Origin: a virus
Direction: 5' to 3' (one strand)
DNA length: 58,579 bases
Virus record (IMG/VR): IMGVR_UViG_3300045988_039851
Below the pieces are notes generated by a model that worked only from the letters and a program-made list of their open reading frames with translations, was not told the DNA's origin and ran no database searches. A program made the position numbers and the translations under genes. Positions 24,012 through 57,446 of this stretch are shown here, in pieces; position 1 is the first letter of the stretch, and the number at the start of each line of letters is the position of its first letter.

Positions 24012-24027
24012 CAAGGAGGGCTAAAAA

Positions 24028-24542: not shown

Positions 24543-24559
24543 CCCACTTTCCACTTCAA

Positions 24560-26453: not shown

Positions 26454-26472
26454 AGTTGTTTTCTCCTTTGCG

Positions 26473-40573: not shown

Positions 40574-41332
40574 TCAGCCCTCCGCTTTCTGGTTCTTCTC
40601 TACTTTCAAGAAGGGGTTTACAAAGTAGACTTGGCCGCGACCGGAAATCTTCGGAGTGCGGTTGATAGAAATGTGGTCGCTGTGCTGAATCGTGGTCTCT
40701 TTGATTTCAAACAGCCCCATCTCCATACTCCGCTGTGTAGGCAAGTTGTAATCGCTACGTTTCGGGTCTTTGATGAGATAGCCATTCCGGCGTAGCCAGT
40801 CAAACAAGCGGTTCTGACCGATGTTAATGCCGTTCTGAGATAGCAACTTTGCCATTTCACCAACCAAAATGCTCTTTTTGCTAGCACTCACGGCATCTGC
40901 AAAAAGCGCTTTCGGTTTCATGGTTTCAATCTGCTTGTCCTTCTGTTCCAGTTCCTCATGCGCTGCGATCAGTGCAGTTGCAAGGAGTTGCGACCGGGTA
41001 AGCTGCGGCTTTTCGGCCAGCTTCTTTTCCATTTCGTTGAACGCTGCAATGTACTTCAGTTTCCATTCGAGAGCAGCCTTGCCATTGAAGCCCATTGCCA
41101 ACAGTGTAAAGCCGTCACGGTTCATCAGATACATGGGGTAGCTCTGGCCGTTCTGCTCATGGACGTACTCGGTCTTGTAGAACATGGGGGTGTCCCCATT
41201 TTTGGGGAGACCCCTCATAATGTCTTCGATGTCACGCATCACATGGTCATGACGCTTCTCAAAGCTCTCTGCAATCTGACGGCTGGAAACCACAGGCTCG
41301 CCATTCTGCATAGATAAGATAATGTCGTTCAT
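40574..41332 (-). CDS. Rha-family phage regulatory protein / antirepressor-like
   Basis: N-terminus VVSSRQIAESFEKRHDHVMRDIEDI. Confidence 0.75.
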   Translation of the reverse strand: MNDIILSMQNGEPVVSSRQIAESFEKRHDHVMRDIEDIMRGLPKNGDTPMFYKTEYVHEQNGQSYPMYLMNRDGFTLLAMGFNGKAALEWKLKYIAAFNEMEKKLAEKPQLTRSQLLATALIAAHEELEQKDKQIETMKPKALFADAVSASKKSILVGEMAKLLSQNGINIGQNRLFDWLRRNGYLIKDPKRSDYNLPTQRSMEMGLFEIKETTIQHSDHISINRTPKISGRGQVYFVNPFLKVEKNQKAEG

Positions 41333-41352
41333 TTTTAACCCTTTCTTATGAT

Positions 41353-41580
41353 TTACTGCTTATCTCTTACAAGAAGAGCATCCACCGACACGCGGAAGTA
41401 ATCAGCGACTTTCACAAGCTGTCGAACGCTCGGCCCATTTGCGGAGCGTTCCCACTTGCCCAGTGCGCCGTTGCTCAAACCAGCAGCTACTTCCAAGTCA
41501 GTACGAGACAGACCATGCAACTTGCGAAACTCGTCGATTTTAGAAAGATTCACTAGCCATTCTCCTTTCTGGGCTTGCAT
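41353..41580 (-). CDS. Cro-like XRE HTH regulator (first gene of the early operon)
   Basis: 75 aa with LHGLSRTDLEVAAGLSNGALGKWE. Divergent from the 41781 HTH gene. Confidence 0.75.
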   Translation of the reverse strand: MQAQKGEWLVNLSKIDEFRKLHGLSRTDLEVAAGLSNGALGKWERSANGPSVRQLVKVADYFRVSVDALLVRDKQ

Positions 41581-41780
41581 TTTACTAGAAAATATGCTAC
41601 TATGTAGTTGCGAGGTACAAAGTGAACATTTTCCAGCGACTTCCCGATAGATTTTTCAGGGGTCTTGGTTTTTGTTTGCCCTGTGCTTCATATTATACTA
41701 GCCAAGTGGCTATTTTTCAATAGTCAATCTTCAATTCCGTGAACATTTGGCTATTTGCACAAAAAGAGAGGTCTTTTTCT

Positions 41781-42101
41781 ATGCGCAATGTGGAGCGAGC
41801 TAAGAAAATCGCTGCCAATAAAGGTGTGAATATATCCTTTGTGTGCAGAGAAATCGGAAAAAGCAGGGGTTATATCTCTCAAATGCTGACTACCGACAGA
41901 GATTTTCCAGATGAAATGCTTTTGCCAGTAGCCAACACACTAGGTGTTACGGTTGAGGAACTCACTGGCGTCCAAAAAGAAAACCCGCCCCAGCAGCCGC
42001 AAAGTGAAGTCGATGCAGCAGTGGAGCGGATTAGAAAAAAACTTGAATCTATGCCGAAGGAACAGCGTGAAGCGCTGATGAACTTAATCGAGAAGATGTG
42101 A
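41781..42101 (+). CDS. XRE-family HTH repressor-like protein
   Basis: ATG at 41781 follows AGAGAGG. Motif KGVNISFVCREIGKSRGYISQM. Confidence 0.7.
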   Translation: MRNVERAKKIAANKGVNISFVCREIGKSRGYISQMLTTDRDFPDEMLLPVANTLGVTVEELTGVQKENPPQQPQSEVDAAVERIRKKLESMPKEQREALMNLIEKM

Positions 42102-42120
42102 CGTTCATGCCCGGTAAAAT

Positions 42121-42168
42121 AAAAACCCCTTGTGCCGGGCTGGTGTAGCTCTGCGCAAGGGGTTTTCT
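42121..42168. terminator. Bidirectional rho-independent terminator
   Basis: AAAAACCCCTTG..CAAGGGGTTTT between convergent genes. Confidence 0.75.
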
Positions 42169-42169
42169 G

Positions 42170-42271
42170 TTACTTTAGGTCTAGCGCTTGTTCTGCTACT
42201 GGAATCTTTTCTGGGTGTTCCAGCAACCATGTGATAAACTGGTCAATCTTGGCTCTTTCCTGCTCGCTCAT
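42170..42271 (-). CDS. Tiny hypothetical protein (33 aa)
   Basis: ATG follows GGGAGGATA; translated by hand (MSEQERAKIDQFITWLLEHPEK..). Confidence 0.4.
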   Translation of the reverse strand: MSEQERAKIDQFITWLLEHPEKIPVAEQALDLK

Positions 42272-42473
42272 TGTGGCATATCCTCCCGATCAGTAAGTGC
42301 GGATGTTTGTTTGAGTCCATTTTACATCATTTTATTGTAAGTTCAAGGTATTTTTAACAACTAGTTGGAAAATAGTGCAAAAATGCTCAATTTTCTGTGC
42401 ATCCACAACTTCCGTCTGGAAACCCATGAGCGTTTAAGTCAAAAGGGACAGCGCCTATCCATCTTTCCTCCAA

Positions 42474-42680
42474 TCACAGCTCTACGAGCTGTCCGTCAAT
42501 GTTTTCGATGCTATCTGCCGGGTCTCGTCCATCGTCTAAGGCGGCTGCGGCACGTTCTAGGATGCCTTTCGCTTCGAGGTAAGCATCTTTATCAGCTTCG
42601 TACCCCGAAAGGCTCAGGACAAGCTCCAGCGTCCGTCTGCGAGCGTATGGGATAATCAGAGTATCTACAGTTCGGTTCAT
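42474..42680 (-). CDS. Hypothetical protein (68 aa), second gene of a two-gene cassette
   Basis: ATG at 42680 in a TAATG overlap with the upstream 36-aa ORF. Confidence 0.5.
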   Translation of the reverse strand: MNRTVDTLIIPYARRRTLELVLSLSGYEADKDAYLEAKGILERAAAALDDGRDPADSIENIDGQLVEL

Positions 42681-42790
42681 TAGCTTTCCTCCCACGGTTC
42701 AGGTGTGTGTGGCTTCCCATCGGGAACGCTGGCAGGCATTCCGTCGATGATTAGCATACGTTCATGGTTCCAGATTACAGTTTCTTTCAT
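42680..42790 (-). CDS. Tiny hypothetical protein (36 aa), first gene of a two-gene cassette
   Basis: ATG follows AGAAAGGAAA; translated by hand (MKETVIWNHERMLIIDGMPASVPDGKPHTPEPWEES). Confidence 0.4.
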   Translation of the reverse strand: MKETVIWNHERMLIIDGMPASVPDGKPHTPEPWEES

Positions 42791-42843
42791 TTTGCATTTC
42801 CTTTCTCTTTGGAAATTTTTGACAATACAGTTATACCACATCT

Positions 42844-42864
42844 CGCTGTTTCAATGAAACAGCG
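42844..42864. promoter_or_regulatory. Perfect 21-bp palindrome CGCTGTTTCAATGAAACAGCG (operator candidate)
   Basis: Read directly in the divergent intergenic region. A half-site TTGTTTCAC lies about 15 bp downstream. Confidence 0.6.
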
Positions 42865-42952
42865 AATTTTTTTAATTATTGTTTCACATTTTGAACAATA
42901 TATCAGTTAAATTTCTTTGATTTTATATCATTTTGTCGAAAGAGGGGTATTT

Positions 42953-43546
42953 ATGGATGATTATAGGATACGAGTGGCAAAAGCGTTAGAGATGGCAAGA
43001 GCAGAATCCGGACTTAGCCAACAGAAGCTTGCAGACAAAATGGGTATAGGCCGAACATCCATTTTTCGTTACGAGCAAGGGACAATGACCCCAGATGCTC
43101 CTACTATCATAAAGTGGTTCGTGTGCTGCGGTGTTGCGGCCAAACCGTACATAGACACCTGTTTGCATCCCGGATTATTGGAAAGTCTGGCTGGCGATGC
43201 CAGCACCGAGAGAAAGAGAGATACGCTGATAGAGCATATCAAAGAAGCCCATCCGCAAGAAATCGACCTGCTGTGCTATCTGATCTACGGCAATCACGGC
43301 TCAGATTACCTTGCCGTTCTGTGCGAAATGGTAGCCAACCTTCACACGACTTTGCGTGATCGTGTGTCCGTCTGCCGCACCGTCACAGGACATTATGAGA
43401 TGGCACAGGCCACCAAAACCGACCCAGACCCAGACGGAACACAGCCTAATATGCAGATTTTATATCAGGCACAGGACTGTGGGGAAGCTTCGGCCATGAA
43501 GCGAAACGATTCTTATACCATCAACGAAGAAAACATTTTGCGCTGA
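42953..43546 (+). CDS. XRE-family HTH regulator with a C-terminal domain
   Basis: ATG at 42953 follows AGAGGGG. Motif SGLSQQKLADKMGIGRTSIFRYEQG. Confidence 0.7.
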   Translation: MDDYRIRVAKALEMARAESGLSQQKLADKMGIGRTSIFRYEQGTMTPDAPTIIKWFVCCGVAAKPYIDTCLHPGLLESLAGDASTERKRDTLIEHIKEAHPQEIDLLCYLIYGNHGSDYLAVLCEMVANLHTTLRDRVSVCRTVTGHYEMAQATKTDPDPDGTQPNMQILYQAQDCGEASAMKRNDSYTINEENILR

Positions 43547-43587
43547 TTGTCGAATTATCGAAGTTTTTACGGTATACAGGGGGACGT

Positions 43588-43605
43588 GTTCCACTTTTTG
43601 TACAC
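43588..43605 (-). repeat. Inverted copy of the Rep iteron
   Basis: The reverse complement reads GTGTACAAAAAGTGGAAC. Confidence 0.75.
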
Positions 43606-43759
43606 AATAGACCTGTTATAAATATAGTTTTGGGTTGTCATTTTGTCCCCCATAGAATCGTAAATAGTGGATTTTTGCGGATGTAATTAACGAACTCGCG
43701 TGAAATTTTCGTTCACCAAAGGGTGACTTGTCAATTCGTCCCCTATTGGTGTGATTGCA

Positions 43760-43776
43760 CTCCATTTTCTGTACAC
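43760..43776 (-). repeat. Inverted copy of the Rep iteron (degenerate)
   Basis: The reverse complement reads GTGTACAGAAAATGGAG. Confidence 0.65.
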
Positions 43777-43913
43777 GATAGAACCGTCAGGTAGGTTATA
43801 GGGCTTGATGGACGTTTCTTATTCAGCAAAAGAAGTTGTCGTTTTCCACAATCTGCCCGTTGAAGAAAAGAAATTGTTGAAAATGTATCGTCGTCACTAT
43901 TTGATGATGATTA

Positions 43914-43948
43914 TTTATCTCTTGTTTATCTCTTGTTTATATATATAG
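43914..43948. repeat. AT-rich tandem TTTATCTCTTG x2 plus TATATATA (candidate unwinding element)
   Basis: Read directly, immediately upstream of the iterons. A DnaA-box-like TTTTCCACA lies at 43842-50. Confidence 0.55.
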
Positions 43949-43955
43949 TAAGAAC

Positions 43956-44058
43956 GTGTACAAAAAGTGGAGCATTGTGTACATAAAGTGGAGGAACGTG
44001 TACAAGAAGTGGAGGGTATCGTGTACAAAAAGTGGAGCATCGTGTACAGAATGTGGAA
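43956..44058 (+). repeat. Five direct iterons GTGTACAnnAnGTGGAG (plasmid-type origin)
   Basis: Iterons start at 43956, 43977, 43998, 44021 and 44042 (spacings 21, 21, 23, 21). Confidence 0.85.
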
Positions 44059-44080
44059 GTCGATTGTTAAAAAAATAATT

Positions 44081-44122
44081 GTGTACAGAATCATTGACGT
44101 GTACACGATACAGTGGTATAAT
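44081..44122 (+). promoter_or_regulatory. rep promoter region with two partial iterons and a TATAAT
   Basis: GTGTAC at 44081 and 44099; TATAAT at 44117-22, 25 nt upstream of the rep ATG. Confidence 0.55.
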
Positions 44123-44147
44123 AGGGTAGAAGAAATGAGGTGATGCA

Positions 44148-45245
44148 ATGCCAGAATTGACAGGAAACAATCTTGTCGAAAAGAGCAAGGCATTGGTTTG
44201 GGCGAAGTTTACGGACTACACAGCAGGCGAGCTTCGGCTGCTTGAGGTCTATCTGAGCCGTATCAATCCGAGAGACCCAGAAAGCTCTAACGTGTCGTTT
44301 ACGCTGGCTGAATATTGCAAGCTGCTGGATTTGAAGCTCAATTCAAAGAACTTGAAGTCGCAAGTTAAGCACTTTTTGGGCAACGTGGTTTCAGTACCAC
44401 TGAATACAGATGGAACGGAATATGTGATGTATCCACTGTTCACAAAGGCAGAGGTTAAGTTCAATCGGGAATCCTTGTCCTATGATGTTTCAATTAACTG
44501 CAATCCTGACTTACGGCCTGTGTTCTTCGATATTGCAAGAAGCGGCTACGTCAAATATCGCCTGCGCTATACGATTGGGATGAAACAGCAAGCATCTATT
44601 CTGATGTACAGCATGATTCGAGATTGGATGAATCGCTCTCTAACATCGAACAAGATTGGTTTGAAGCAGCTGCGTGACCACTTGGGGGCAAACGATGCAA
44701 GTTATGACGATTTCCGGGCTTTGCGCCGCAGAGTTCTTGAACCAGCAGTGGAAGAGATCAGCAATGTTTCAGACATTGTCGTTGACTTTGAAAAGATTTG
44801 CACAGGGCGAAAGGTAGTAGCAGTTGAGTTTCGATTCGGGTACAAATCCAAGCAGCCCGTCATAGATGCCGATTCTAGCGAGGTTGATTGTGAGACGGCT
44901 AATTCCAAGCCGGAAATCAAAAAAGCCGCCAGAAAACCCTGCACAAGCGGATATGAGGATTTCGACTGGTCTGTGTGTGACGAGCTAGAAAAGCAAGACT
45001 GCATTGACGTGGCGAAGGTAGTTGAGAAGTGGATGAAGAAAGAGCATCCTGAAATCAAGCTGCCGAGACGCAGAGAAGCGGTTTATGAGACGGTGAAAGC
45101 CGCATACAATGACATCTTGTCTTTGGACAGGTCTCCGTTCCCTGACAGACCCGTTGGCTATCTGATTAGAAGCGTGGACAAGGCAGGTATCGTAGACAGG
45201 TATATGCCAGCGTTCTATTCCATTGAAGCACTTAGCAGCAAATAA
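44148..45245 (+). CDS. repB: Plasmid replication initiator (Rep_3/RepB-like)
   Basis: 365 aa with N-terminus NNLVEKSKALVWAKFTDYTAGELRLLEVYLSRINPRDP. It immediately follows its iterons. Confidence 0.75.
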   Translation: MPELTGNNLVEKSKALVWAKFTDYTAGELRLLEVYLSRINPRDPESSNVSFTLAEYCKLLDLKLNSKNLKSQVKHFLGNVVSVPLNTDGTEYVMYPLFTKAEVKFNRESLSYDVSINCNPDLRPVFFDIARSGYVKYRLRYTIGMKQQASILMYSMIRDWMNRSLTSNKIGLKQLRDHLGANDASYDDFRALRRRVLEPAVEEISNVSDIVVDFEKICTGRKVVAVEFRFGYKSKQPVIDADSSEVDCETANSKPEIKKAARKPCTSGYEDFDWSVCDELEKQDCIDVAKVVEKWMKKEHPEIKLPRRREAVYETVKAAYNDILSLDRSPFPDRPVGYLIRSVDKAGIVDRYMPAFYSIEALSSK

Positions 45246-45260
45246 AGAAAGGATGATAAA

Positions 45261-45512
45261 ATGGCAAAAGTTCAAAGTTCCGTTTTGTACAGAGAAGTGG
45301 CGAAATTGCGAAACGACTTCGATTGTAACAGAGTTGAGTTTTTCACCGTTGGGGACGGAATTGATACGCCAATTCATGTAATGGTCGGTTCTCGCGGGCA
45401 CGGCACTGTAGAACCAGACGAAGCGATTGAGGAAGGAAAGGCGCTAATTGAAGCTGGTAAGGCAGCAAAAAAATTTAAGTACAATGGTTATTTTGTAATG
45501 TGGGGAGAATAA
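45261..45512 (+). CDS. Hypothetical protein
   Basis: 83-aa ORF between rep and parA. Confidence 0.55.
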   Translation: MAKVQSSVLYREVAKLRNDFDCNRVEFFTVGDGIDTPIHVMVGSRGHGTVEPDEAIEEGKALIEAGKAAKKFKYNGYFVMWGE

Positions 45513-45514
45513 AA

Positions 45515-46285
45515 ATGGCAAAAATTATAGCTGTCGCCAACCAGAAAGGCGGCGCAGGAAAGACCACCACAAGCACCTGTCTGGCTGGTGCGTTACAGTT
45601 GCTTGGCAAGAAAGTCCTGCTGGTGGACTGCGATGCCCAGTGCAACGCAACGGATACTTACGGCGCACAGACAGAGGACGTATGTACCCTGTTTGACGTG
45701 ATGACCCGGCAAGGCACGGCCGAAGAAGGAATCCAGCACTGTGAAGCTGGTGACATTCTGCCATCCGACAGCGCATTGAAGGACATTGACGAGCAGCTTG
45801 TCCGGGACATTGGCAAGAACTTCCGGCTGCGAGAAGCCCTTGAAAGCGTATCCGAGCAGTACGATTATATTGTGCTGGACACTCCCCCGCAGCTTGGTCT
45901 TGCGCTTGTGAACGCACTGATCGCCGCCAACAGCATTATCGTTCCCATCACAGCAGACCGATACGCACTGGCTGGTTTGAGCCAGCTTTCGCAGACCATC
46001 GGCGATGTTCGCAGATATTTCAATCCGACTTTGAAGATTGAAGGATTGCTTCTGAACCAGTACAAGAGCCGTGAGAACCTGTCCAAAGAGGTTGTGGAGC
46101 AGCTTCCTGTGATTGCACAGAGTATGGGAACAACCCTGCTGGACGTGAAGATTAGACCGTCTATGGGCGTTCGCAAGGCGCAGGCAGAGCGGCACAGCCT
46201 GTTTAGCGGCGACACGGCAAAGAGTACCAGCGCAGAGGATTTCAAAGAGCTGGCAAAGAAGATTGTGGAAGGAGAAGAAAAATGA
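45515..46285 (+). CDS. parA: ParA/Soj-type partition ATPase
   Basis: MAKIIAVANQKGGAGKTTTS deviant Walker A; ATG follows GGGGAG. Confidence 0.9.
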   Translation: MAKIIAVANQKGGAGKTTTSTCLAGALQLLGKKVLLVDCDAQCNATDTYGAQTEDVCTLFDVMTRQGTAEEGIQHCEAGDILPSDSALKDIDEQLVRDIGKNFRLREALESVSEQYDYIVLDTPPQLGLALVNALIAANSIIVPITADRYALAGLSQLSQTIGDVRRYFNPTLKIEGLLLNQYKSRENLSKEVVEQLPVIAQSMGTTLLDVKIRPSMGVRKAQAERHSLFSGDTAKSTSAEDFKELAKKIVEGEEK

Positions 46286-46713
46286 AATTGATTGACGCAG
46301 AACCGCTTGAAAAAAAATTCAAAGGATGGATAGAACAAATCAAGAAAGAATATCCGTTCGGGAAAATAGAAGATATTGATGGAGTGGAATCGTGCCTTGC
46401 TGAGCTGGAAGATGCGCCAGCTATTAGCTTGGATGAGCTTACAGATAGCGATAGGTGGATCAGTGTTTCAGATAGACTTCCAGAAAGGTGCAAGACCCCA
46501 TGCCCTCGTGGAAACAATCCTGATTTTAGCAATGTAAGCGAAACCGTATGGATTTGCACGCAGGAAGGGTATACGATGGAAGGTAAGTTGGAGGGCAATT
46601 CTTGGTTTGATGATATGGGGCAGTGCCTTTCAGACTATTTTGAAGATATGGCAGGTCATCATGTCACGCATTGGATGCCTCTGCCTAAGCCGCCAAAGGA
46701 GGATGTAGAATGA
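46282..46713 (+). CDS. DUF551-like protein
   Basis: 143 aa with WISVSDRLPE and a C-terminal VTHWMPLPKPPKE. Overlaps parA by 4 nt. Confidence 0.55.
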   Translation: MKLIDAEPLEKKFKGWIEQIKKEYPFGKIEDIDGVESCLAELEDAPAISLDELTDSDRWISVSDRLPERCKTPCPRGNNPDFSNVSETVWICTQEGYTMEGKLEGNSWFDDMGQCLSDYFEDMAGHHVTHWMPLPKPPKEDVE

Positions 46714-47282
46714 AATCAACCAGCAAAAAATCCTCAGGTCTGCTTGGCGGGTTTGATTTTCAGCCTATTTTTTTGGAACCTGTGTTAAGCCGAAGTGAGT
46801 CAAAGGAAGAAGAAGTAAGCCAAGCAAAGCCGAACGAAGCCGAACAAGCACAGATTAAGCCCAGTGAAGCCACAGACAGCCATGCACGGCCTAATGAAGC
46901 ACAGTTAAGCAGTATTAAGCCGAAGCAAGCCAAAGACAGCGAAACACAGCCAAACAATGCCGTAGTAAGCGAAAGTAAGCCAAAAAAGCTGAAACAGGCG
47001 AAGGAAGTTCAACGCCTTATCGAACAAGGCGATGTTCCCGGCGCACTAGCCGAAGCTGGCCTGACAAAGAAAAAAATCCCGATGCCAGAATCGCATCAGG
47101 GCGTTGCAAGCGGAGACGGCAAGCGTTCCAAGCGCATTACCATCCTTATGAGCGAGGAAGAGCGCAAGTATATCAACCGTGAAGCAAGGCGACACGGCAT
47201 GACGATTGGACAGTTCGTGTACGCTCTGGCGGTTGCGGCAGCAGAGGGAAAGATTGAATTGGAGGACTTCTTGGAGGATTGA
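46710..47282 (+). CDS. Ribbon-helix-helix protein (ParG/MobC-like) with six 10-aa repeats
   Basis: C-terminus KRITILMSEEERKYINREARRHGMTIGQFVYALA; repeats S-x-x-K-P-x-E-A-x-x. Confidence 0.65.
   Translation: MKSTSKKSSGLLGGFDFQPIFLEPVLSRSESKEEEVSQAKPNEAEQAQIKPSEATDSHARPNEAQLSSIKPKQAKDSETQPNNAVVSESKPKKLKQAKEVQRLIEQGDVPGALAEAGLTKKKIPMPESHQGVASGDGKRSKRITILMSEEERKYINREARRHGMTIGQFVYALAVAAAEGKIELEDFLED
46818..46997 (+). repeat. Six tandem 30-bp units, each of three 10-bp AGC-phased subunits
   Basis: 14 of 17 consecutive 10-bp windows (46811-46980) end in AGC, and 2 more end in GGC/TGC. Confidence 0.85.
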
Positions 47283-47314
47283 CGATAAAAGTTAAGGTTT
47301 AGAAAGGATTTGCT

Positions 47315-47572
47315 ATGACTTACGGAGAAATGAACAACTATATCACCCATATTAGTGACAATGACTTGGTTGCGTTGTGCAAGAGCGTTTACGAGTTCAA
47401 GAATGGAAACGGAGTGTTGGAGCCCACTTCGACACTCAAGATTTTATCAGAAAATTTACAGTTTCCCGATGTGAGAGCGTTGGAATATGCCATTACGGAA
47501 GAAGCGCATAAACGATACGGTCAAATTGTTTTACTTCTTATGAAAGACGCTCCGGCGCATTATTTGAAATAA
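47315..47572 (+). CDS. Hypothetical protein
   Basis: 85-aa ORF with RBS AGAAAGGA. Confidence 0.55.
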   Translation: MTYGEMNNYITHISDNDLVALCKSVYEFKNGNGVLEPTSTLKILSENLQFPDVRALEYAITEEAHKRYGQIVLLLMKDAPAHYLK

Positions 47573-47612
47573 CAATAAGAGCTGAGATTTCTGAATCTTT
47601 TGGAAGACTGAT

Positions 47613-47768
47613 ATGACGAAACAAGAGCAAGTTGCAAGAATTGCAAAATACTACACAACCTTCCACCTTTTTGGAGATTGGTACCTTGTTCGGCGTTGGG
47701 CTAGACACTGCCATAGTTGGAAGCGGTTCATTCCATTGTATATGCTAATGCACATTAAAGAAGAATAA
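47613..47768 (+). CDS. Small hypothetical protein (51 aa)
   Basis: ATG follows GGAAG; translated by hand (MTKQEQVARIAKYYTTFHLFGDWYL..). Confidence 0.4.
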   Translation: MTKQEQVARIAKYYTTFHLFGDWYLVRRWARHCHSWKRFIPLYMLMHIKEE

Positions 47769-47778
47769 TCTATGTGAG

Positions 47779-48198
47779 ATGAGAAAAATGCGTACATACA
47801 AGCCACGCAAGCACAGAAGCAAAGAGGAACAAGCTAAAATCAACGCAGAGGTAGCAAAACGTAAAGCAAAACTGGCTGAAAAGTACAATACTGACACGCA
47901 GTATTACAAGGGTATTCCTGTTGAGCTGATTGTAAGAGAGGACTACGGTTGCTACAAAGCAAAGCGTTTCAAAATCAATGGGATCAATCAAAACGTGTGG
48001 ATTCCAAACTGCTATCTTGAAGATGACGGAACAATCAAGGCGAATGTGAACATTGATTTTGTATTCCGTAAGTCTGTAAACCAGTTAAACAAAGCTGGAA
48101 TCACGCAAGCGATTATTGGTATCAAACGTAAAATGCCGGAAGCAGATGTGCCGAATCTCAAAAGCGCAATGCAAAAAATCGGAGATACAGGAACTTGA
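47779..48198 (+). CDS. Hypothetical basic protein
   Basis: 139-aa ORF. Confidence 0.55.
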   Translation: MRKMRTYKPRKHRSKEEQAKINAEVAKRKAKLAEKYNTDTQYYKGIPVELIVREDYGCYKAKRFKINGINQNVWIPNCYLEDDGTIKANVNIDFVFRKSVNQLNKAGITQAIIGIKRKMPEADVPNLKSAMQKIGDTGT

Positions 48199-48209
48199 TA
48201 AAGCACAAA

Positions 48210-48240
48210 CCCCTGTGTAGCCGCAATGACCGCACAGGGG
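48210..48240 (+). other. Hairpin CCCCTGTG..CACAGGGG (left arm shared with the 48735 hairpin)
   Basis: 8-bp stem, no U-run, followed by the RBS of the next gene. Confidence 0.5.
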
Positions 48241-48253
48241 AGAAAGGAAACAC

Positions 48254-48724
48254 ATGGGACAAAAAGTGTTAGGGCACTACGAATCACACTGGTATCTCAA
48301 TGGGACAGGCGGTGACATATACGAAGGTAAGATGGTCTTTCGGGATAAAGATTGGCGTATAAGATATATGCCAAACCAATGCGTTGAAACCTATTATTTT
48401 AGATTAAAGAAAATAAAAGATGATTTTAAGAGCAAAGGGCAAAAAGAAGGAAATTATAAAAACATTGCATGGATAAAATTTTCCGAATTGAATTGGTTTG
48501 AACGAAGAAAGCGTCCAGATTGGTTTAAGGTTCAATTTCTTTCAAATGGACTTGATAGTCCAAAAACACAATGGTATACAGTCCACGATTTGTCTGGTAT
48601 CGAAGAAAAGAAGCATTGGGTTGAGGAAAAACGCCAATACACAATGAAAGAACTTTCAGAGAGAATGCCAGCAGAAGATTTTATCGAGTATATGAAAGAT
48701 AGAGGAATAACGACAATCCGATAA
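48254..48724 (+). CDS. Hypothetical protein
   Basis: 156-aa ORF with RBS AGAAAGGAAA. Confidence 0.6.
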   Translation: MGQKVLGHYESHWYLNGTGGDIYEGKMVFRDKDWRIRYMPNQCVETYYFRLKKIKDDFKSKGQKEGNYKNIAWIKFSELNWFERRKRPDWFKVQFLSNGLDSPKTQWYTVHDLSGIEEKKHWVEEKRQYTMKELSERMPAEDFIEYMKDRGITTIR

Positions 48725-48734
48725 GCGAAAAACA

Positions 48735-48766
48735 CCCCTGCGTAGCCATTAGTGGTTACACAGGGG
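48735..48766. terminator. Hairpin between convergent genes (bidirectional terminator candidate)
   Basis: CCCCTGCGTAGCC..GGTTACACAGGGG, pairing at 11 of 13 positions. Confidence 0.55.
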
Positions 48767-48773
48767 TTCTGCT

Positions 48774-49412
48774 TTACTTATCAGCAATGCAATCCCAGTA
48801 GAGATACGCCTTGCCATCTGCGGCATCCGCGTCCTCAAGGAACGCTTTTGCCATGTCAGCGTAGAAGCCCGGAGTATCAACGGACTGGCGCTTTGCGACC
48901 TGACAATAATCTGAGTACATCATGTTCATGACAGCCCAGAAATCGTTCGGGTCACAGGTGATATTGCGCTGTTTGGCAACGTCCTGCGTCTGTTCCAGCG
49001 TCCAGTGACAACCCTTCGTGCCGTCAGCATTCACCATGCTGTCACACCATTCCTCCGCTTCATCGTGAGTGAGGTGCTGACGCGGCATCTTGATGGAACG
49101 ACTGTCTGCACCGCCAAGTTCGTACTGCCCAGACCGCTTGTCCCAGTCGCCGTTCTGCGAGAAGCCGATTTGCGGCATTTTGCGCCCATACTCAACGTCA
49201 GGGTAGCGGGGGATAGGGTAAGGGTCGATGTAGCGGTTTTCCTCCTGCGGATAGTATGGATAGCGGTCGTTGCCACCTTCCAGCTTACGCAGACGGCGTT
49301 CCATCTCACGCTCCCTGCGGTCACGCTCTTCCTCAAGGCGGTCACGTTCCGGCTCACGGTCTTTGTCGTGGTCACGGAGCATCATCATGCGGCGAAAATT
49401 GTTCTTGCCCAT
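48774..49412 (-). CDS. Cargo-island protein 5: charged Arg/Glu/Asp N-terminus, Pro/Tyr-rich middle, conserved-looking C-terminal domain
   Basis: 212 aa with RBS GAGGAGG. C-terminus HWTLEQTQDVAKQ..MNMMYSDYCQVAK. Confidence 0.65.
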   Translation of the reverse strand: MGKNNFRRMMMLRDHDKDREPERDRLEEERDRREREMERRLRKLEGGNDRYPYYPQEENRYIDPYPIPRYPDVEYGRKMPQIGFSQNGDWDKRSGQYELGGADSRSIKMPRQHLTHDEAEEWCDSMVNADGTKGCHWTLEQTQDVAKQRNITCDPNDFWAVMNMMYSDYCQVAKRQSVDTPGFYADMAKAFLEDADAADGKAYLYWDCIADK

Positions 49413-49425
49413 AATCTATACCTCC

Positions 49426-49797
49426 TCAAGAAATGGACGCGGGCGCACCGGCGTGGGAACGGCAGAAGCAGCCAAGATATTTGAACGTGCTGGTGCCGGT
49501 CGCAGACGTTACAACGCGGGTAGCATAGCGGGTGCGGGTGTGGATGCTTTCAGCGGTTGCCTGAGCGCAGTTGCAGTCGGTCAGGGGGTATGCGGTAGTT
49601 CCTGCACCGATGGTGATGACCACAGGGGCGTTGATGGTGGTCGTGTCCGGCAAAGCCTGAGCAATGACCAGACAATATTTTTCTCCCGCTGCGTAAGAGC
49701 CAGCAGGGATATTGATGGTCAGCGTGTCGTTGGCGAACGTAACAGACTGGCTCAAGACCAGATGGGGGCAGAGTTTGCAGCTTGTTTTGCAAGCCAT
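49426..49797 (-). CDS. Cargo-island protein 4: 123-aa Cys-rich beta-rich protein
   Basis: RBS AGGAGGAAAA. 8 Cys: N-terminal CKTSCKLC, central DCNC, C-terminal GCFC. Confidence 0.65.
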   Translation of the reverse strand: MACKTSCKLCPHLVLSQSVTFANDTLTINIPAGSYAAGEKYCLVIAQALPDTTTINAPVVITIGAGTTAYPLTDCNCAQATAESIHTRTRYATRVVTSATGTSTFKYLGCFCRSHAGAPASIS

Positions 49798-49811
49798 AAT
49801 GTTTTCCTCCT

Positions 49812-49848
49812 AAAAAATCAGGGGCAGAGGTGTCTTACCCCTGCCCCG
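49812..49848 (-). terminator. Rho-independent terminator after the 290-aa gene
   Basis: Minus strand reads GGGGCAG..CTGCCCC followed by TGATTTTTT. Confidence 0.7.
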
Positions 49849-49882
49849 ATGGTTCACCCGGTGTTATCGGGGAGTGTGTTGG

Positions 49883-50755
49883 TTAGCAGCAGCCGCAGCA
49901 GTTCACGCCCACGTTGGGGTTTGCCACCTGATAAGCGGGAATCGGACGAGGATTCACACGGTTCAGGATGGTATCAGTCTGCCGAGACATCACGGTGGTC
50001 AGAAGCGCATTCTGCCGATCCTGAGAAGCCGCGAACTTCAGGCTCTGGTTCTCGGCGGTCAGAGTGGCAATCTTGTCCTGCGTGAAGTAGTCCATCATGC
50101 TGCGGAAGTTGGCGTTGCAGTTGTCCACGATGGCACGGGCGTTGTCTGCGATAGCCTGACGGGTAGCGCAGTCCTCCGTTGCGATGGTGTACTTCAGATC
50201 GCCGATCAGCTGCTTGTTCTCGCAGCAGCAAGATGCCAGCTGCGTGGCAAGTGCGGTCTGACCTGCCTGCCGTGCGTTGCCCTCCTGCATGATGGCAAGG
50301 CTGATGGCATTGTCGCCGTTGGACACGCTGCGTTCCAGACCGTTCACCAGCTGTGCGTTCTGGTAGCCAAGCTGACAGATGGCACTGTTCACGCCCGCAA
50401 AGCCGTTCGCAATGTTGGCGTTGATGCCATTGATCTGTGCCAGCTGGTCATAGCCAAGAGAGCAGATACCGCTCTGGATGCCAGCCAGAGAGCGGGAGGT
50501 GTCCTGCTGGTAGAAGCCCTCAGACAGAGCCGCACGGGTGTCTGCACCGCCCTGACCGGTTGCGCCAGTGCCGACCAGATAGGGGATGTAAGCGTTCATG
50601 CCGTTGTCGCCGCCGTTCCGGCCATAGCCGTTCGTGCCCCAGCCGAAGATGATAGCGAGGATAATAACAGCCCAAAGACCCTCGTTGCCGAAGAATCCGC
50701 CGTTGTTATTGCCGCCGTCCTGCCCAGCCAGATAGCCAGTTGCAAAATCGTCCAT
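49883..50755 (-). CDS. Cargo-island protein 3: Gly/Asn-rich N-terminus with one TM helix, Gln/Asn/Ala-rich body, C-terminal CCGCC
   Basis: 290 aa with RBS AAAGGAG. Has GGFFGNEGLWAVIILAIIFGWG, an internal SCCCEN, and ends VNCCGCC. Confidence 0.7.
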   Translation of the reverse strand: MDDFATGYLAGQDGGNNNGGFFGNEGLWAVIILAIIFGWGTNGYGRNGGDNGMNAYIPYLVGTGATGQGGADTRAALSEGFYQQDTSRSLAGIQSGICSLGYDQLAQINGINANIANGFAGVNSAICQLGYQNAQLVNGLERSVSNGDNAISLAIMQEGNARQAGQTALATQLASCCCENKQLIGDLKYTIATEDCATRQAIADNARAIVDNCNANFRSMMDYFTQDKIATLTAENQSLKFAASQDRQNALLTTVMSRQTDTILNRVNPRPIPAYQVANPNVGVNCCGCC

Positions 50756-50877
50756 AACAAAACTCCTTTCAGTTTTGCGTTATGCTATCCCATCGCCGTA
50801 TGCGATGGGCGAAGCCAAACAAATGCGGTTTTTGTCAAGTCCGCAAAACTGAGAAGCGTTTCGCTTAGAGGAATGCG

Positions 50878-51129
50878 TTATCGGGGCAGCGTCAAATTTA
50901 GGACGCTTGCCAGCTGGTTCAGGTCGATACCGCGCTCTTTGGCGAGGTTCTGCGCCATCGTTCGGAGCTGTGCTTCGTTTTTGCCCTGAATCAGGTTCAA
51001 ACCTTGCATGATAGGAGCATTCTGCCCGCTTAACTGCTGGATAAGCCCCATCGGGTTCTGCCCGGCACGAGCCAGATTTGCAAGCTGCATGATAGGGCTG
51101 TGAGTAATCATATCAATCGGAGAGGGCAT
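50878..51129 (-). CDS. Cargo-island protein 2 (83 aa, Gln/Asn/Leu-rich)
   Basis: RBS AAAGGAGAA. Confidence 0.6.
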   Translation of the reverse strand: MPSPIDMITHSPIMQLANLARAGQNPMGLIQQLSGQNAPIMQGLNLIQGKNEAQLRTMAQNLAKERGIDLNQLASVLNLTLPR

Positions 51130-51132
51130 CGC

Positions 51133-51651
51133 TTATTCTCCTTTCTTTGCGGTGGCAGCGGGCTTCGAAAAGCTCTTCTGCCACTTTTCCAGTTCATCCA
51201 GCCGGTGGACGAGGGCGTTGTACTGCTCAATAGGCACATACTGCTGTGTCGGTGTAGCGGTCTGCTGTGCCTGTTGTGCTTGCATCTGCCTCCACGCTTC
51301 CGGGCTGTAAAACTCTAACACGTCAGATTCACAAGTGTTTGGGTTCAGACGTTTGCAGTAGATGACACCACTACGCAAATCCGGGCAATACGTCCATCTT
51401 CCATACAGATCAGATGGAATTGCCAAAAACTCCTCTCTGCTGGAAACAGGTCTGCCAAGCAACCAACCGCCGTCCTGTGCCGACTGCTGAACAGGCTGCT
51501 GCCCATTCATCGGCTGCGGACGCTGCGGTTGTGCCTGTTGCATCTGCGTGTTGGGCAGGGGAGTGGCAAGCCCAACTGTGCCCATGCCACCGTAAGGATT
51601 GACAGGCTGCTGTGGAACGTAGGGCGCTCCGGGTGCCGGATAATAGCTCAT
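51133..51651 (-). CDS. Cargo-island protein 1: Pro/Gln-rich N-terminus, Cys-containing C-terminal domain
   Basis: ATG at 51651 follows AAGGAGGG. Sequence begins MSYYPAPGAPYVPQQPVNPYGG. Confidence 0.65.
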   Translation of the reverse strand: MSYYPAPGAPYVPQQPVNPYGGMGTVGLATPLPNTQMQQAQPQRPQPMNGQQPVQQSAQDGGWLLGRPVSSREEFLAIPSDLYGRWTYCPDLRSGVIYCKRLNPNTCESDVLEFYSPEAWRQMQAQQAQQTATPTQQYVPIEQYNALVHRLDELEKWQKSFSKPAATAKKGE

Positions 51652-51724
51652 AAAACATCCCTCCTTGTGCATCCAGTGTACTGCATCGGCAAAAAGCAAG
51701 AGACAACAAAGGCACAACGAAGGA

Positions 51725-51768
51725 CAAAAAAGAAAAGCGCCCACACGGAAAAATCCGCATGAGCGCTT
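51725..51768 (-). terminator. Leader terminator/attenuator upstream of the cargo island
   Basis: Minus strand: AAGCGC..GCGCTT stem with an inner GCGG/CCGT helix, then TTTTCTTTTTT. It ends about 75 nt before the ATG at 51651. Confidence 0.55.
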
Positions 51769-51854
51769 AACTGTTAAGGGCCTCACATTGGAAGCGAAAA
51801 TAAAATATCACATTTTGACTTGCAAGACAAGAATTTCGGCAAAACTAGTGCGAA

Positions 51855-51930
51855 TAAAACAAAAATCCCCCACTTTGCCTACAACGTACCCCGCGTGGAA
51901 CGCAGGGCTTCGACAAAGCAGGGGATTTTA
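51855..51930 (-). terminator. Long rho-independent terminator after the sigma-like gene
   Basis: Minus strand: AAAATCCCC..GGGGGATTTTTGTTTT with an inner CCCTGCG/CGCGGGG helix. Confidence 0.65.
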
Positions 51931-52209
51931 CTCAAAAATTTTTGTGATGCCTTTCAGCCGGTAGCCTACCGCCGTCCGACTGTAATGTGTCTGTGCTGCA
52001 ATATCCGGCAGCGGGAGCCGCTCCACGTACCGTAAAAGAGCTATCTTTCGGTCTACCCTCCCAAGCGGTGCGTTTTTGATGGCTGCGGTCATCTGCTGTC
52101 GGTCAAGTCCTTGCAGCGCAGCGGGCAGCACTACGCGAGCCGCCGCCACGGGCAGCACCGAGCCAAAAAGGCTGCGGTAACTGTCCTGCGTTGCGTACCA
52201 TTTTGCCAA
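51928..52209 (-). CDS. Sigma-70 region-4-like HTH protein (late-activator-like), TTG start in the track
   Basis: Motif RVDRKIALLRYVERLPLPDIAAQTHYSRTAVGYRLKG. There is no clear RBS at the TTG. Confidence 0.45.
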   Translation of the reverse strand: MAKWYATQDSYRSLFGSVLPVAAARVVLPAALQGLDRQQMTAAIKNAPLGRVDRKIALLRYVERLPLPDIAAQTHYSRTAVGYRLKGITKIFE

Positions 52210-52321
52210 TGCTGGCGAAACGGTGACATTTTGTCACCATTTTCGTAATGTCACGAAATTGCTCTTGTGCGGCGTACATTTTGTTGGTGTCAACAAAATG
52301 CTCGTATGTAGTGCTTGCCAT
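52103..52321 (-). CDS. ORF with a strong RBS overlapping the sigma-like ORF in another frame
   Basis: ATG at 52321 follows AAGGAGG. Only about the first 35 codons look protein-like, and the ORF contains three dyads. Confidence 0.3.
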   Translation of the reverse strand: MASTTYEHFVDTNKMYAAQEQFRDITKMVTKCHRFASIGKMVRNAGQLPQPFWLGAARGGGSRSAARCAART

Positions 52322-52331
52322 GATAACCTCC

Positions 52332-52670
52332 TTACTGCTTTTGCAATGCCTTCCGCATCTGGTCGAAGAAAAATTGAATGACCTTGCTCATGGTTTCCTC
52401 GGTGATAGCCCAGCTGACCAGCTTGCCCCATCGGCTATTGTCCAGATAGTGGCGCAGCATCTTGACGCACCACGCCTTGCGTTCTGCGCCGCGCTTGGTG
52501 CCCTGAATCTCCCGCTCTGCCTGAGTGATAAGGTTGAGCACCAGATTTTTGACTGCCGCGCCATAGCCCAGACGGATGCCGCCGATGGCGTAGAAGACGA
52601 GTCCGCCCAGCATCAGGATGACGGCCACAGGAACAGGAATGATGCTCAAAATTTCATTGATTGCTTCCAT
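52332..52670 (-). CDS. Holin-like membrane protein
   Basis: 112 aa with an N-terminal TM segment ILSIIPVPVAVILMLGGLVFYAIGG. Lies downstream of the endolysin. Confidence 0.55.
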   Translation of the reverse strand: MEAINEILSIIPVPVAVILMLGGLVFYAIGGIRLGYGAAVKNLVLNLITQAEREIQGTKRGAERKAWCVKMLRHYLDNSRWGKLVSWAITEETMSKVIQFFFDQMRKALQKQ

Positions 52671-53043
52671 GATTGGTAACTCCTTTCAAAAGATAATTGT
52701 CGATGCTAGCCTTGCTTTTCTGCATCCCTTCGTGATTGTCCCCGGAGAGCTGAGCGTCCAGCAGATTTCGCACACCATCAAGGGCCAAGCAAATCTCTTC
52801 GTCGATCGCGTCGAAGCGGGTGAGGTCGCGTTTTAAGGCCGCTGCGTGCTGAGACGAAATGCTTTCGACTGCGCCCAGCCGTTGCTCGATAGCGTCAAGC
52901 CGCTGGTTTTGCGCGGCGTCGGGTGCCTGCGCCTTTTTGATATACTTGTGGATGATGTCCAGCACCTTGTCCAGCGTGACCGCTCCTGCACACACGCTGC
53001 CAACAACCCCCAGCACCCACAAAAGAGCCTGCTCTTTAGTCAT
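52654..53043 (-). CDS. Membrane-anchored lysis-associated protein (holin/spanin-like position)
   Basis: 129 aa with an N-terminal TM segment LLWVLGVVGSVCAGAV, then a coiled coil. Overlaps the endolysin stop by 4 nt. Confidence 0.45.
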   Translation of the reverse strand: MTKEQALLWVLGVVGSVCAGAVTLDKVLDIIHKYIKKAQAPDAAQNQRLDAIEQRLGAVESISSQHAAALKRDLTRFDAIDEEICLALDGVRNLLDAQLSGDNHEGMQKSKASIDNYLLKGVTNHGSNQ

Positions 53044-53840
53044 GCGCCCTCCCGGAGACGGGTCAGACCCTTCTTTCTGATGATACGGGGGTAGTTGAGG
53101 GTGGTCACGTTGAGGTCTACGTTGCCGGAGATGCCCGGCACGCTGCCCTTGCTGGTGTGCTGGTGCGCATTGTACTTAAAGCTCACTTTGGGGGCCTTTC
53201 CGGTGTAATCGGCCAGCCAGACGTCGTAAGGCTTGAGCGCTGCGCCGCCCATATAAAGGCGGGAGTTGGCAAAACTGGTATAGGTGTAGAGCTGAGCGTA
53301 AAAGCCCATCGCCTCGATACGAGCCAGTGCATAAGCCGTCAGGTCGGTGAGGGCCTGCTTGCCCAGTTGCTTGAACTTATTGTCCTCTACGTCTACAGCC
53401 ACCGGAAGGGTCAGCTCTTTCCCCCGCAGAGCTTCGGACAGAAGGGCCAGCTCCTTATCTGCACCGGTGCGGCTGATGGCGTAGGTGTAGTAGTAGACGC
53501 CCACGTCCAGCCCAGCAGCCCGGGCGTTGCGGTAGTTATCCTCAAAGGTTGGGTCGATATACAGGCCGTCTGCCCGCTTGGAGAACTTTTTGTTGGTGGA
53601 TACCGTCTTGAGCATGACGCCCTTGTAGCCAGCCGCTTTGACCTTGCGCCAGCCGTCGAGGGTGATTTTGCCCTGATACCGGCTCACGTCGATGTACCGG
53701 TAGGGCGGATCGCCCTCCCAGCCGGGAGGAGCGGAGGCTTTGGTGTCCACGGTGGACGCCTTAGGAGAGGCATCTGCGGAGGGATGGGAAGGGCCAAAAA
53801 TGCCCGCGAGAAGGTTGCTCAAAAACTCAAGAAAGCTCAT
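53040..53840 (-). CDS. Endolysin, GH25 muramidase-like
   Basis: Motifs YIDVSRYQGKITLDGWRKVKAAGYKGVMLK and AAGLDVGVYYYTYA. Confidence 0.8.
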   Translation of the reverse strand: MSFLEFLSNLLAGIFGPSHPSADASPKASTVDTKASAPPGWEGDPPYRYIDVSRYQGKITLDGWRKVKAAGYKGVMLKTVSTNKKFSKRADGLYIDPTFEDNYRNARAAGLDVGVYYYTYAISRTGADKELALLSEALRGKELTLPVAVDVEDNKFKQLGKQALTDLTAYALARIEAMGFYAQLYTYTSFANSRLYMGGAALKPYDVWLADYTGKAPKVSFKYNAHQHTSKGSVPGISGNVDLNVTTLNYPRIIRKKGLTRLREGA

Positions 53841-53856
53841 ACAACCACGTCCTTCC

Positions 53857-54379: not shown

Positions 54380-54480
54380 GTGCAACAACTCCTTTCGTTT
54401 TATAGCTGTCTCATGCCGCCTTGCTTTCAGTGGGGCTTCCCCCCTCTGCCGCAAGCGGCATTCACCCCCGGCGCAAGGTG

Positions 54481-57431: not shown

Positions 57432-57446
57432 AAGCGCGCTCCTCTC

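Follow-up and report, generated by a model that had tools for sequence, protein, structure and literature searches.

The virus record IMGVR_UViG_3300045988_039851 (called here the window, the whole stretch of 58,579 nucleotides that was analysed) carries the genes of a tailed phage and, at positions 43588-47282, a block of plasmid type: an iteron origin, a replication initiator (Rep), a ParA partition ATPase and a putative ribbon-helix-helix (RHH) protein. The question raised by this locus is how such a genome is inherited. A previous inspection of the letters alone (the sequence-only reading) had proposed a phage-plasmid, and every computational test of that proposal came out as predicted: the features used to define phage-plasmids (sensu Pfeifer et al. 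2021, PMC7969092), a phage gene set, plasmid replication and partition genes and the lack of an integrase, were found together. The window is likely to represent a temperate phage of a Firmicute of the human gut, probably siphovirus-like in its virion, which lacks an integration module and passes from cell to cell in lysogens as a circular plasmid of low copy number. The first and last 91 bp form an exact direct repeat (1-91 and 58489-58579), marking the window as a circular (or terminally redundant) assembly with 58,488 bp of unique sequence.

The origin occupies the left part of the block and comprises, with the gene for the initiator (lengths of proteins in amino acids, aa):

43590-43605, minus strand: inverted iteron A'1, identical to the direct iterons at 16 of 16 positions (motif scan)
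43635-43650, minus strand: inverted site B'1 (GGGGACAAAATGACAA), of the iteron type of a clade with Reps about 65% identical, foreign to the window's own Rep
43728-43743, minus strand: inverted site B'2 (GGGGACGAATTGACAA), foreign iteron type
43761-43776, minus strand: inverted iteron A'2, one mismatch (motif scan)
43842-43850, plus strand: DnaA-box-like TTTTCCACA, one mismatch to the DnaA box TTATCCACA
43914-43950: AT-rich region, 2.5 copies of the 11-bp TTTATCTCTTG (43914-43940; Tandem Repeats Finder), then TATATATA
43956-44057, plus strand: five direct iterons GTGTACAnnnnGTGGA(G) spaced 21/21/23/21 bp (motif scan, Tandem Repeats Finder)
44081-44122, plus strand: rep promoter region, with half-iteron, promoter and palindrome
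44148-45245, plus strand: Rep initiator, 365 aa, with Rep3_N (WH1), Rep3_C (WH2) and a C-terminal extension of about 100 aa

The motif GTGTACANNANGTGGA (up to one mismatch) was present in seven copies in the window, all of them within the block, against a chance expectation of 0.07; none of 100 shuffles reached seven copies. The fifth direct iteron ended in GTGGAA instead of GTGGAG. The DnaA-box-like 9-mer is not significant alone (by chance, 58 kb should contain about 12 9-mers of this kind). Of 79 distinct related origins, 69 had a DnaA box with up to one mismatch at a conserved distance. In the origins designated type B below, whose iterons have no sequence in common with the box, it was a perfect TTATCCACA, so that the box is not merely a half-iteron. 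The AT-rich region is a probable DNA-unwinding element, and its CTTGTTTA repeats were present in every type of origin cassette. The best sigma-70-like promoter of the region, TTGACG-17-TATAAT at 44094-44122 (11 of 12 consensus positions, extended TG), precedes rep and overlaps both a half-iteron, GTGTACA (44081-87), and the perfect palindrome GTGTACAC (44099-44106), a probable operator for Rep dimers. The direct iterons, the two partial iterons in the rep promoter, the two inverted copies, the AT-rich repeat and the DnaA-like box all lay where the sequence-only reading had placed them. This layout is that of the origins of F (ori2) and pPS10.

The initiator, previously described as Rep_3/RepB-like, matched both Rep3_N (PF01051, E 1.7e-17, 64.6 bits, cut-off 22.4) and Rep3_C (PF21205, E 1.2e-15, 58 bits, cut-off 21.1) above the Pfam cut-offs, with weak NCBIfam matches to RepM and RepE; a PDB sequence search with Rep gave no match. 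Homologues of Rep (tblastn) were found in 621 PLSDB plasmids vs. 6 phage records, the latter being uncultured gut fragments, Burkholderia phage KS14 and a relative of KS14. The best plasmid match was a 6.9-kb plasmid of Mediterraneibacter gnavus (36% identity over 62% of the protein), and a nucleotide search of PLSDB with the replication block gave no match. In a large protein collection, Reps of about 40% identity were mostly encoded on contigs of 2-7 kb and those of 50-100% identity on contigs of 57-62 kb. The nearest Reps in species-representative genomes (identity up to 39%) came from metagenome-assembled genomes of Faecalibacterium, Anaerotignum, Acutalibacteraceae, Lachnospiraceae and Oscillospiraceae.

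Is this origin a working replicon or a captured remnant? The origin was compared across 95 related loci, grouped by the identity of their Rep to that of the window (about 85-100%, 65% and 50%). Type A iterons, four to five tandem copies of GTGTACAnnnnGTGGA, were present in 32 of the 32 loci of the 85-100% class, and type B iterons, tandem GGGGGACnnnnTGACAAG, in all 45 loci of the class of about 65%; the class of about 50% had mostly type A iterons. Two further types, GGTACGAGATGTGCAT (locus L097) and AGGTATACAAAATCTGCA (locus L067), were seen in IMG/VR relatives with Reps about 50% identical to the window's (within the 640 bp that precede rep). Along with the iterons the promoter operator changed too, type B having GGGGGAC...GTCCCCC instead of GTGTACAC. 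The Reps of types A and B were about 55% identical over residues 1-255 (WH1/WH2), against 95-100% over residues 265-365, so that what is exchanged comprises the iterons and the part of rep that encodes the DNA-binding half. Across these loci Rep clade and iteron type co-vary, with at least four types, a pattern which, on comparative grounds, indicates that the replicon is functional and under selection.

The four inverted sites upstream of the origin were present in the order A', B', B', A' in all lineages, whatever the iteron type of the genome itself; locus L067 had, besides its A' and B' sites, inverted copies of its own type. In type A genomes (25 distinct sequences) the variability was 0.010 and 0.007 for the A' sites, 0.028 and 0.016 for the B' sites and 0.069 for the spacer; in type B genomes (39 distinct sequences) the values were 0.053 and 0.162 (A'), 0.098 and 0.085 (B') and 0.299 (spacer). 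In the latter the sites were less variable than the spacers (Mann-Whitney p = 1e-7, a value to be read with the positions not being independent). Inverted iterons of a replicon's own type fit copy control by handcuffing, as in incA of P1 or incC of F, and by this analogy the own-type copies are candidate copy-control sites. The foreign-type sites may be decoys acting on related co-resident elements, or sites of another protein. If they are decoys, they would act by titration or handcuffing on the Rep of relatives, whether co-resident or incoming, and so cause superinfection interference at the plasmid level. The composite proposition, that a common gut lineage swaps its Rep/iteron cassette (and with it the incompatibility type), keeps foreign inverted iterons as decoys and has its centromere within a gene, is put forward tentatively and has a rather low chance of holding in full.

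The centromere of this proposition belongs to the right part of the block, where the following features were found:

45261-45512, plus strand: 83-aa open reading frame (ORF), no family match, absent or replaced in relatives
45515-46285, plus strand: ParA ATPase, 256 aa, no N-terminal helix-turn-helix (HTH), type Ib, Soj-like (AAA_31, E 6e-54)
46282-46713, plus strand: DUF551 gene, in a slot variable in relatives (different genes of 88-143 aa; absent in the relative L164, described below)
46710-47282, plus strand: 190-aa protein with a C-terminal RHH-like domain (residues about 141-178)
46781-46990: array of about 20 degenerate units of 10 bp in tandem (C-R-A-A-N-N-A-A-G-C), within the 5' half of the RHH gene

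The deviant Walker A motif claimed for ParA was read directly as KGGAGKTT, in agreement with its AAA_31 match; the best solved relatives of this protein were ParA/Soj, and its identity was at least 96% in the best 80 of more than 560 IMG/VR relatives. The 190-aa gene (170 aa in one lineage) always accompanied parA, whereas the genes among rep, parA and the 190-aa gene varied or were missing, so far as these comparisons go making the 83-aa and DUF551 genes variable passengers outside the system; the 83-aa ORF was considered as a partition component and rejected, being missing or replaced in relatives. The genes parA and RHH appear to share one operon, with overlapping start and stop codons and, from rep to the RHH gene, no promoter-like site reported but a weak match (9 of 12) inside parA. 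The RHH gene was represented by 819 protein clusters at 90% identity.

The AlphaFold model of the 190-aa protein had disordered residues 1-89, two helices and then, at the C-terminus, a strand-like RITILM followed by helices 149-161 and 166-178 (pLDDT 75-86 for RITILM and the helices), a predicted RHH topology. The top Foldseek matches, CopG, Arc, AtaR and NikA, were all RHH proteins and all had E > 1, and a PDB sequence search gave no match. The earlier description of this gene as an RHH protein is weaker than those of Rep and ParA: it agrees with the modelled topology and goes further than the Pfam match, below its cut-off, and the Foldseek E values. The 190-aa protein, whose gene is the constant companion of parA, is a probable centromere-binding protein.

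The array of 10-bp units within its gene is the probable centromere, by analogy with the type Ib systems compared at the end of this text, and its location inside the gene of the probable binding protein is unusual. All spacings of TAAGC in the array were multiples of 10, and the lag-10 autocorrelation (0.57, against a genome mean of 0.257 +/- 0.039) was higher than anywhere else in the window. In a set of 89 distinct family sequences the variability of the array had a period of 10 (p = 0.0002) and not of 3 (p = 0.15), whereas the coding parts flanking it had a period of 3 (p <= 0.002) and not of 10; the array is therefore constrained as DNA and not as protein. One lineage lacked exactly six units (60 bp), and the residues encoded by the array were predicted to be disordered.

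Among all ORFs of at least 95 aa in six frames, the Pfam/PHROGs scan detected no tyrosine integrase and no large serine integrase, and there was no gene of protelomerase size in the window. The claim that no integrase is present therefore held for these two classes; it had overlooked one small recombinase:

17657-18232, minus strand: small serine recombinase, 191 aa, second gene of the packaging operon (Resolvase PF00239, E 2e-36)

This protein has the catalytic motif YARVSSAGQ in its N-terminal domain and a C-terminal HTH (residues 167-191 gave a weak excisionase-type HTH match, TIGR01764, E 4.5e-4, below the cut-off). It is of the resolvase/invertase type, without the large C-terminal domain of serine integrases, and is possibly a resolvase of plasmid multimers. 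Its operon runs on into terminase, and relatives had the recombinase at the same position.

The recombinase gives some room to another explanation, in which the phage is an ordinary integrative one that enters the chromosome or another mobile element by means of this enzyme, or of an integrase of the host or of a neighbouring element, rep-par being a captured fragment or used transiently. The type of the recombinase argues against such a role, and so do the sizes of the related contigs. Among the best 80 of the more than 560 IMG/VR relatives, 56 were of 53-63 kb, 23 were shorter and one was of 90.4 kb. In the assembly collection 129 blocks contained the exact Rep protein, and no block among these belonged to a size class above 200 kb; the ten longest of these contigs shown were of 54.9-60.4 kb, mostly from bulk gut metagenomes, and the recombinase and the diverged Reps gave the same pattern of contig sizes. 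Contigs of genome size thus number in the hundreds, most of them from bulk metagenomes. Together with the plasmid-dominated family of Rep and with the map position of the block, which corresponds to that of the integrase in the cultured Clostridium phage Maintenon, these sizes support an extrachromosomal prophage, as far as sequence comparison can speak to it.

Several observations weigh against that reading. A virion, or a circle excised from a chromosome, would assemble as the same circle. Some contigs exceeded the genome length (90,437 and 76,952 bp in IMG/VR, the two records being IMGVR_UViG_3300029742_000285 and IMGVR_UViG_3300029211_000009; 91,670 bp in ENA, ERZ28577782 scaffold_127; and 74,434 bp in NCBI, JAKSHC010000899.1), and in one of 80,637 bp (L164; ENA ERZ4567069 NODE_899) the sequence ran from the RHH side of the block into a tyrosine integrase and Tn916-like genes. 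No res or inversion site was found for the recombinase, which lies in the late operon, away from the maintenance genes. The conserved inverted iterons of foreign type are unexplained by a phage-plasmid model. In the partition module, the Pfam match of the 190-aa protein (NikA-like/TacA, at the C-terminus) was sub-threshold (25.4 bits vs. a 27-bit cut-off), and parA and the RHH gene are separated in the window by the DUF551 gene, being adjacent only in L164 and in the contig L165 described below. Finally, the GC-skew minimum at about 42-43 kb falls at the switch of gene strand and so adds little.

In the contig L164 the phage homology ended just past a small RHH_1 gene that follows the one for the 190-aa protein, and the sequence beyond (10864-20573) encoded a tyrosine integrase, a 78-aa protein, HTH_16 and sigma70_r4 proteins, an ABC transporter, a histidine kinase/LytTR pair and an HTH_17 protein. 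The non-phage segment is the right end of a Tn916-like element, of which the integrase is the terminal gene; the best match of the element in the plasmid database was from Monoglobus pectinilyticus. Another contig, as long as the whole phage (56,953 bp; L165 10861-10999), broke off 139 bp into the same element. The element is read as a transposon inserted into the phage-plasmid, although it may be a chromosomal neighbour. The overlong contigs are few as well: the 91,670-bp scaffold contained a single exact copy of its DUF7841 gene, so that it is not a simple identical concatemer, and the contigs of about 90 kb, both ending in the variable tail-fibre region, are possibly strain-chimeric over-assemblies. 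With the covariation of Rep and iterons and the constraint on the array both showing a block under selection, integration as the normal way of life of this phage is considered improbable.

Two side observations concern the surroundings of the recombinase gene. The sequence AACACTAAAAAGT(K) was present in five copies (0.57 expected), at 18572-18610 (minus strand) and 22898-22992 (plus strand). Two copies are each enclosed by the -35 and -10 boxes of a consensus promoter that faces outwards. Of the left pair, one copy lies in the promoter of the operon for a 103-aa protein, the recombinase and terminase; of the right three, the middle copy lies in that of the gene at 23024-23458. In arrangement the copies resemble operators of one regulator on either side of a 4.3-kb low-GC accessory island (cf. 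OL/OR of lambda). These inverted repeats at 18.6-22.9 kb were also considered as inversion sites and rejected: they lie within promoters, and the segment flanked by them had one orientation in all relatives seen. The low-GC island encodes a 402-aa HNH-endonuclease-like protein (21368-22576, minus strand) and a zinc-ribbon protein (20606-21349, minus strand), with no match to a PADLOC defence model.

A plasmid-type origin could also serve lytic growth alone, and the regulatory and replication genes outside the block bear on this point:

27115-29003, minus strand: phage-type replication pair, a DUF6291 protein (28335-29003) followed by a DnaB-like helicase (27115-28338)
41353-41553, minus strand: Cro-like HTH_3 protein, 66 aa, first gene of the leftward early operon (Pfam)
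41781-42101, plus strand: 106-aa gene at the CI position, divergent from the Cro-like gene (weak HTH_3, E 4.7e-4)
42953-43546, plus strand: 197-aa HTH_3 regulator with an RstR-like N-terminus, directly upstream of the origin (Pfam)

The Cro-like gene had a promoter-like site, TTGAAA-17-TATAAT, at 41720-41692. In relatives the slot at the CI position held an allele of 109 aa (HTH_19/HTH_26), and in some of them the 197-aa regulator was swapped for an unrelated gene of 168 aa. Two antirepressors (Rha/ANT and Bro-N/ANT), an AAA_24 protein and a RecU-like protein were also identified (Pfam).

The gene for the DUF6291 protein precedes that for the DnaB-like helicase with overlapping start and stop codons. 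The two replication systems previously proposed, an iteron-Rep and an organizer plus DnaB, are thus plausible as a pair, the iteron-Rep standing beside a DnaB-like pair; the term organizer is unproven, the gene upstream of the helicase being just a DUF6291 gene and the label resting on its position. The DUF6291 protein was tried as the counterpart of the annotated replication initiator of Maintenon, with which it had no sequence similarity; the DnaB-like helicases of the two phages were 27% identical. The 12-mer ATGCAAACGCAT was present in four copies (0.68 expected), two inside the DUF6291 gene (28691-28721) and two intergenic (25915-25955), and these clusters may be origins for lytic replication. 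In relatives L031 and L033 a RepA_N gene lies downstream of the helicase, its coordinates corresponding to about 26.0-26.7 kb in the window; no claim is drawn from it.

Some phages use iteron-binding initiators in lytic replication, as lambda does with its O protein. By that precedent the Rep_3/iteron unit could be the main lytic origin of a non-lysogenic or carrier-state phage, with ParA aiding a transient episome and no stable plasmid prophage. The divergent pair of the Cro-like gene and the gene at the CI position, the additional HTH regulator and the two antirepressors are at odds with this alternative. So is the presence of a separate gene in the initiator slot with a DnaB-like helicase, arranged as in the integrative relative Maintenon, and so is the transcription of rep-par with the genes of the repressor side, in the direction opposite to that of the early lytic operon. 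Low-copy inheritance would, moreover, be the only setting in which active partition and sites for copy control make sense. A phage of this kind is accordingly regarded as quite improbable.

The sequence-only reading had described the genome as that of a complete tailed phage, and virion, packaging and lysis genes were indeed found with PHROGs in the circular assembly:

3254-16754, minus strand: virion module (PHROGs)
3254-7168, minus strand: tape measure, 1,304 aa (PHROGs)
10092-11168, minus strand: major head protein (PHROGs)
12642-14144, minus strand: portal (PHROGs)
15087-16754, minus strand: TerL, the large terminase subunit (PHROGs)
53040-53840, minus strand: endolysin (GH25 in relatives; PHROGs)

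The G+C content of the window was 49%, with values of 42-47% at 17000-27000 and 41000-49000 (accessory, switch and origin regions) vs. 53-57% at 49000-58000 (the tail-fibre and lysis side), and this jump between regions suggests a mosaic origin of the modules. Mosaic accessory regions and unequal composition (42-47% in some segments, 55-57% at 49-58 kb) would also suit a plasmid that captured a prophage, by now defective and forming no infectious particles. All modules are, on the other hand, intact, with long ORFs; the size is held tightly at 53-63 kb in many samples; related fragments from human faecal samples were deposited as "Bacteriophage sp."; and the structural module was conserved among variants with different Reps. 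A defective prophage is therefore thought very improbable.

With a functional phage-plasmid as the preferred reading, the following course of events is proposed, in which the binding steps are all inferred from known systems. Rep_3 monomers on the five direct iterons (43956-44057), with host DnaA at 43842-50, would melt the AT-rich 11-bp repeats and start theta replication, and Rep dimers on the palindromic half-iteron GTGTACAC would repress the rep-parA-RHH operon. The upstream inverted iterons of own type (43590-605 and 43761-776) would pair with the origin iterons (handcuffing) and limit the copy number. The C-terminal RHH domain of the 190-aa protein would coat the array of about 20 10-bp units in the 5' half of its own gene, and the disordered N-terminal part would stimulate the type Ib ParA, by which the copies would be segregated over the nucleoid; the small serine recombinase may resolve plasmid dimers. 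Upon induction, through the Cro/CI-type switch (41.3-42.1 kb) and the two antirepressors, lytic replication would pass to DUF6291-DnaB, and the late operon would package the DNA. Across the family, specificity would be changed by swapping a cassette of iterons plus WH1/WH2, with the partition module kept near constant.

Strong Shine-Dalgarno sites, sigma-70-type promoters, the Firmicute relatives of Rep and TerL and the Tn916-like neighbour point to a gut Firmicute as the host, and the gene families of the block had already been recognized as of Firmicutes type from the letters alone. The C-terminal half of the DUF7841 protein (48774-49412, minus strand) was 91% identical to WP_440486375.1, labelled Segatella hominis, which is at odds with these signals. 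As a hint of the host this match was given little weight: it is on a 9-kb contig only (GCA_051969975.1) and is opposed by the Shine-Dalgarno sites, the promoters and the Firmicute relatives.

Other features of the window lie apart from the block. A tRNA-Met (CAU) gene is located at 14593-14669 (minus strand), between the portal and terminase genes. A DUF3800-VIII RNA motif (51864-51927, minus strand; Rfam 82 bits vs. a gathering score of 40.2) sits in a gene-free gap of about 450 bp, between a 172-aa gene and the genes of the lysis side, and this gap was retained in relatives. The early operon encodes a type II DNA methyltransferase (31779-32708, minus strand; PADLOC MTase_II, E 9e-66), the sole match when ten accessory proteins were searched with PADLOC; relatives had other DNA_methylase genes in this slot. 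In relative L167 a reverse-transcriptase gene (18646-19842, faint RVT_1 match) lies beside the tail-fibre genes, possibly as part of a diversity-generating retroelement, and the tail-fibre region was the break point of several assemblies.

The phage-plasmid lifestyle itself is already known. About 6% of gut viral operational taxonomic units cluster with known phage-plasmids, mostly in Firmicutes and Actinobacteria (bioRxiv 10.1101/2025.02.07.636470; PMC7969092; PMC13221032), and thousands of IMG/VR genomes were reported as phage-plasmid-like in surveys. No TerL or Rep relationship to the window was found for the survey reference elements (the 25-kb linear element of B. thuringiensis, phi6423, CP51 and the 48-kb element of C. 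atypicum). What is added here is a common gut family without a cultured representative, not described before. This abundant family amounts to a natural experiment, with a near-constant partition module, at least four interchangeable Rep/iteron specificities and conserved candidate sites for foreign Reps. If the 3.7-kb block replicates by itself, it would provide a low-copy backbone for vectors in gut Clostridia, with the compatibility groups already built in. Lifestyle callers based on integrases would misclassify the whole family.

Phage P1 has the oriR/incC iterons, repA, the incA control iterons, parA-parB-parS and Cre-lox. The likeness to the window lies in a tailed temperate phage kept as a low-copy plasmid (a state inferred for the window), an iteron initiator beside its origin, a second set of iterons, a ParA and a site-specific recombinase; the window differs in the Rep_3 family of its initiator, the predicted RHH-type (type Ib) partner of ParA instead of an HTH ParB, the serine type of its recombinase and the Firmicute host. 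No records of P1, N15 or SSU5 were listed or tallied among the tblastn matches of Rep or TerL in the phage collection, so that the lifestyle in the style of these three phages, as previously proposed, holds as functional similarity and not as homology in Rep or TerL.

Rep_3 iteron plasmids (F with RepE/ori2, R6K with pi, pPS10 with RepA) have the same WH1 plus WH2 initiator and the same layout of DnaA box, AT-rich repeats, iterons of about 22 bp, rep and an inverted half-iteron operator in the promoter. The window is distinguished from them by the additional C-terminal domain of about 100 aa, the setting in a phage genome and the upstream inverted iterons of foreign specificity. Burkholderia phage KS14, a P2-like myovirus of a proteobacterium, gave a Rep_3-type match of 26% identity over a third of Rep; this phage reportedly persists as a plasmid.

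The partition module resembles ParA/ParB of pCXC100 (PMC3074162) and ParF/ParG-parH of TP228 (PMC3130281), which combine a small ParA without HTH, as in the window, and a partner with a flexible N-terminal half and a C-terminal RHH domain, as predicted for the 190-aa protein. In the type Ib ParB of pCXC100 the N-terminal half is sensitive to protease and an RHH domain forms the C-terminal part, and this protein binds cooperatively to nine unspaced 9-bp repeats (PMC3074162). Centromeres of this type are built of numerous short direct repeats without spacers (9 x 9 bp in pCXC100 vs. about 20 x 10 bp in the candidate array) and lie upstream of parA in type Ib systems, whereas here the array falls within the gene of the putative partner, itself set apart from parA by a passenger gene.

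Among cultured phages the nearest is Clostridium phage Maintenon (ON453900.1, host [Clostridium] innocuum, 57 kb), with a TerL 52% identical to that of the window. The order of modules is shared: lysogeny, Cro, antirepressor, recombination, initiator plus DnaB, packaging, head and tail. Maintenon has an integrase and a LexA-like repressor and no rep/par, whereas the window, with no integrase, has at the same position its repressor, origin, rep and par genes.

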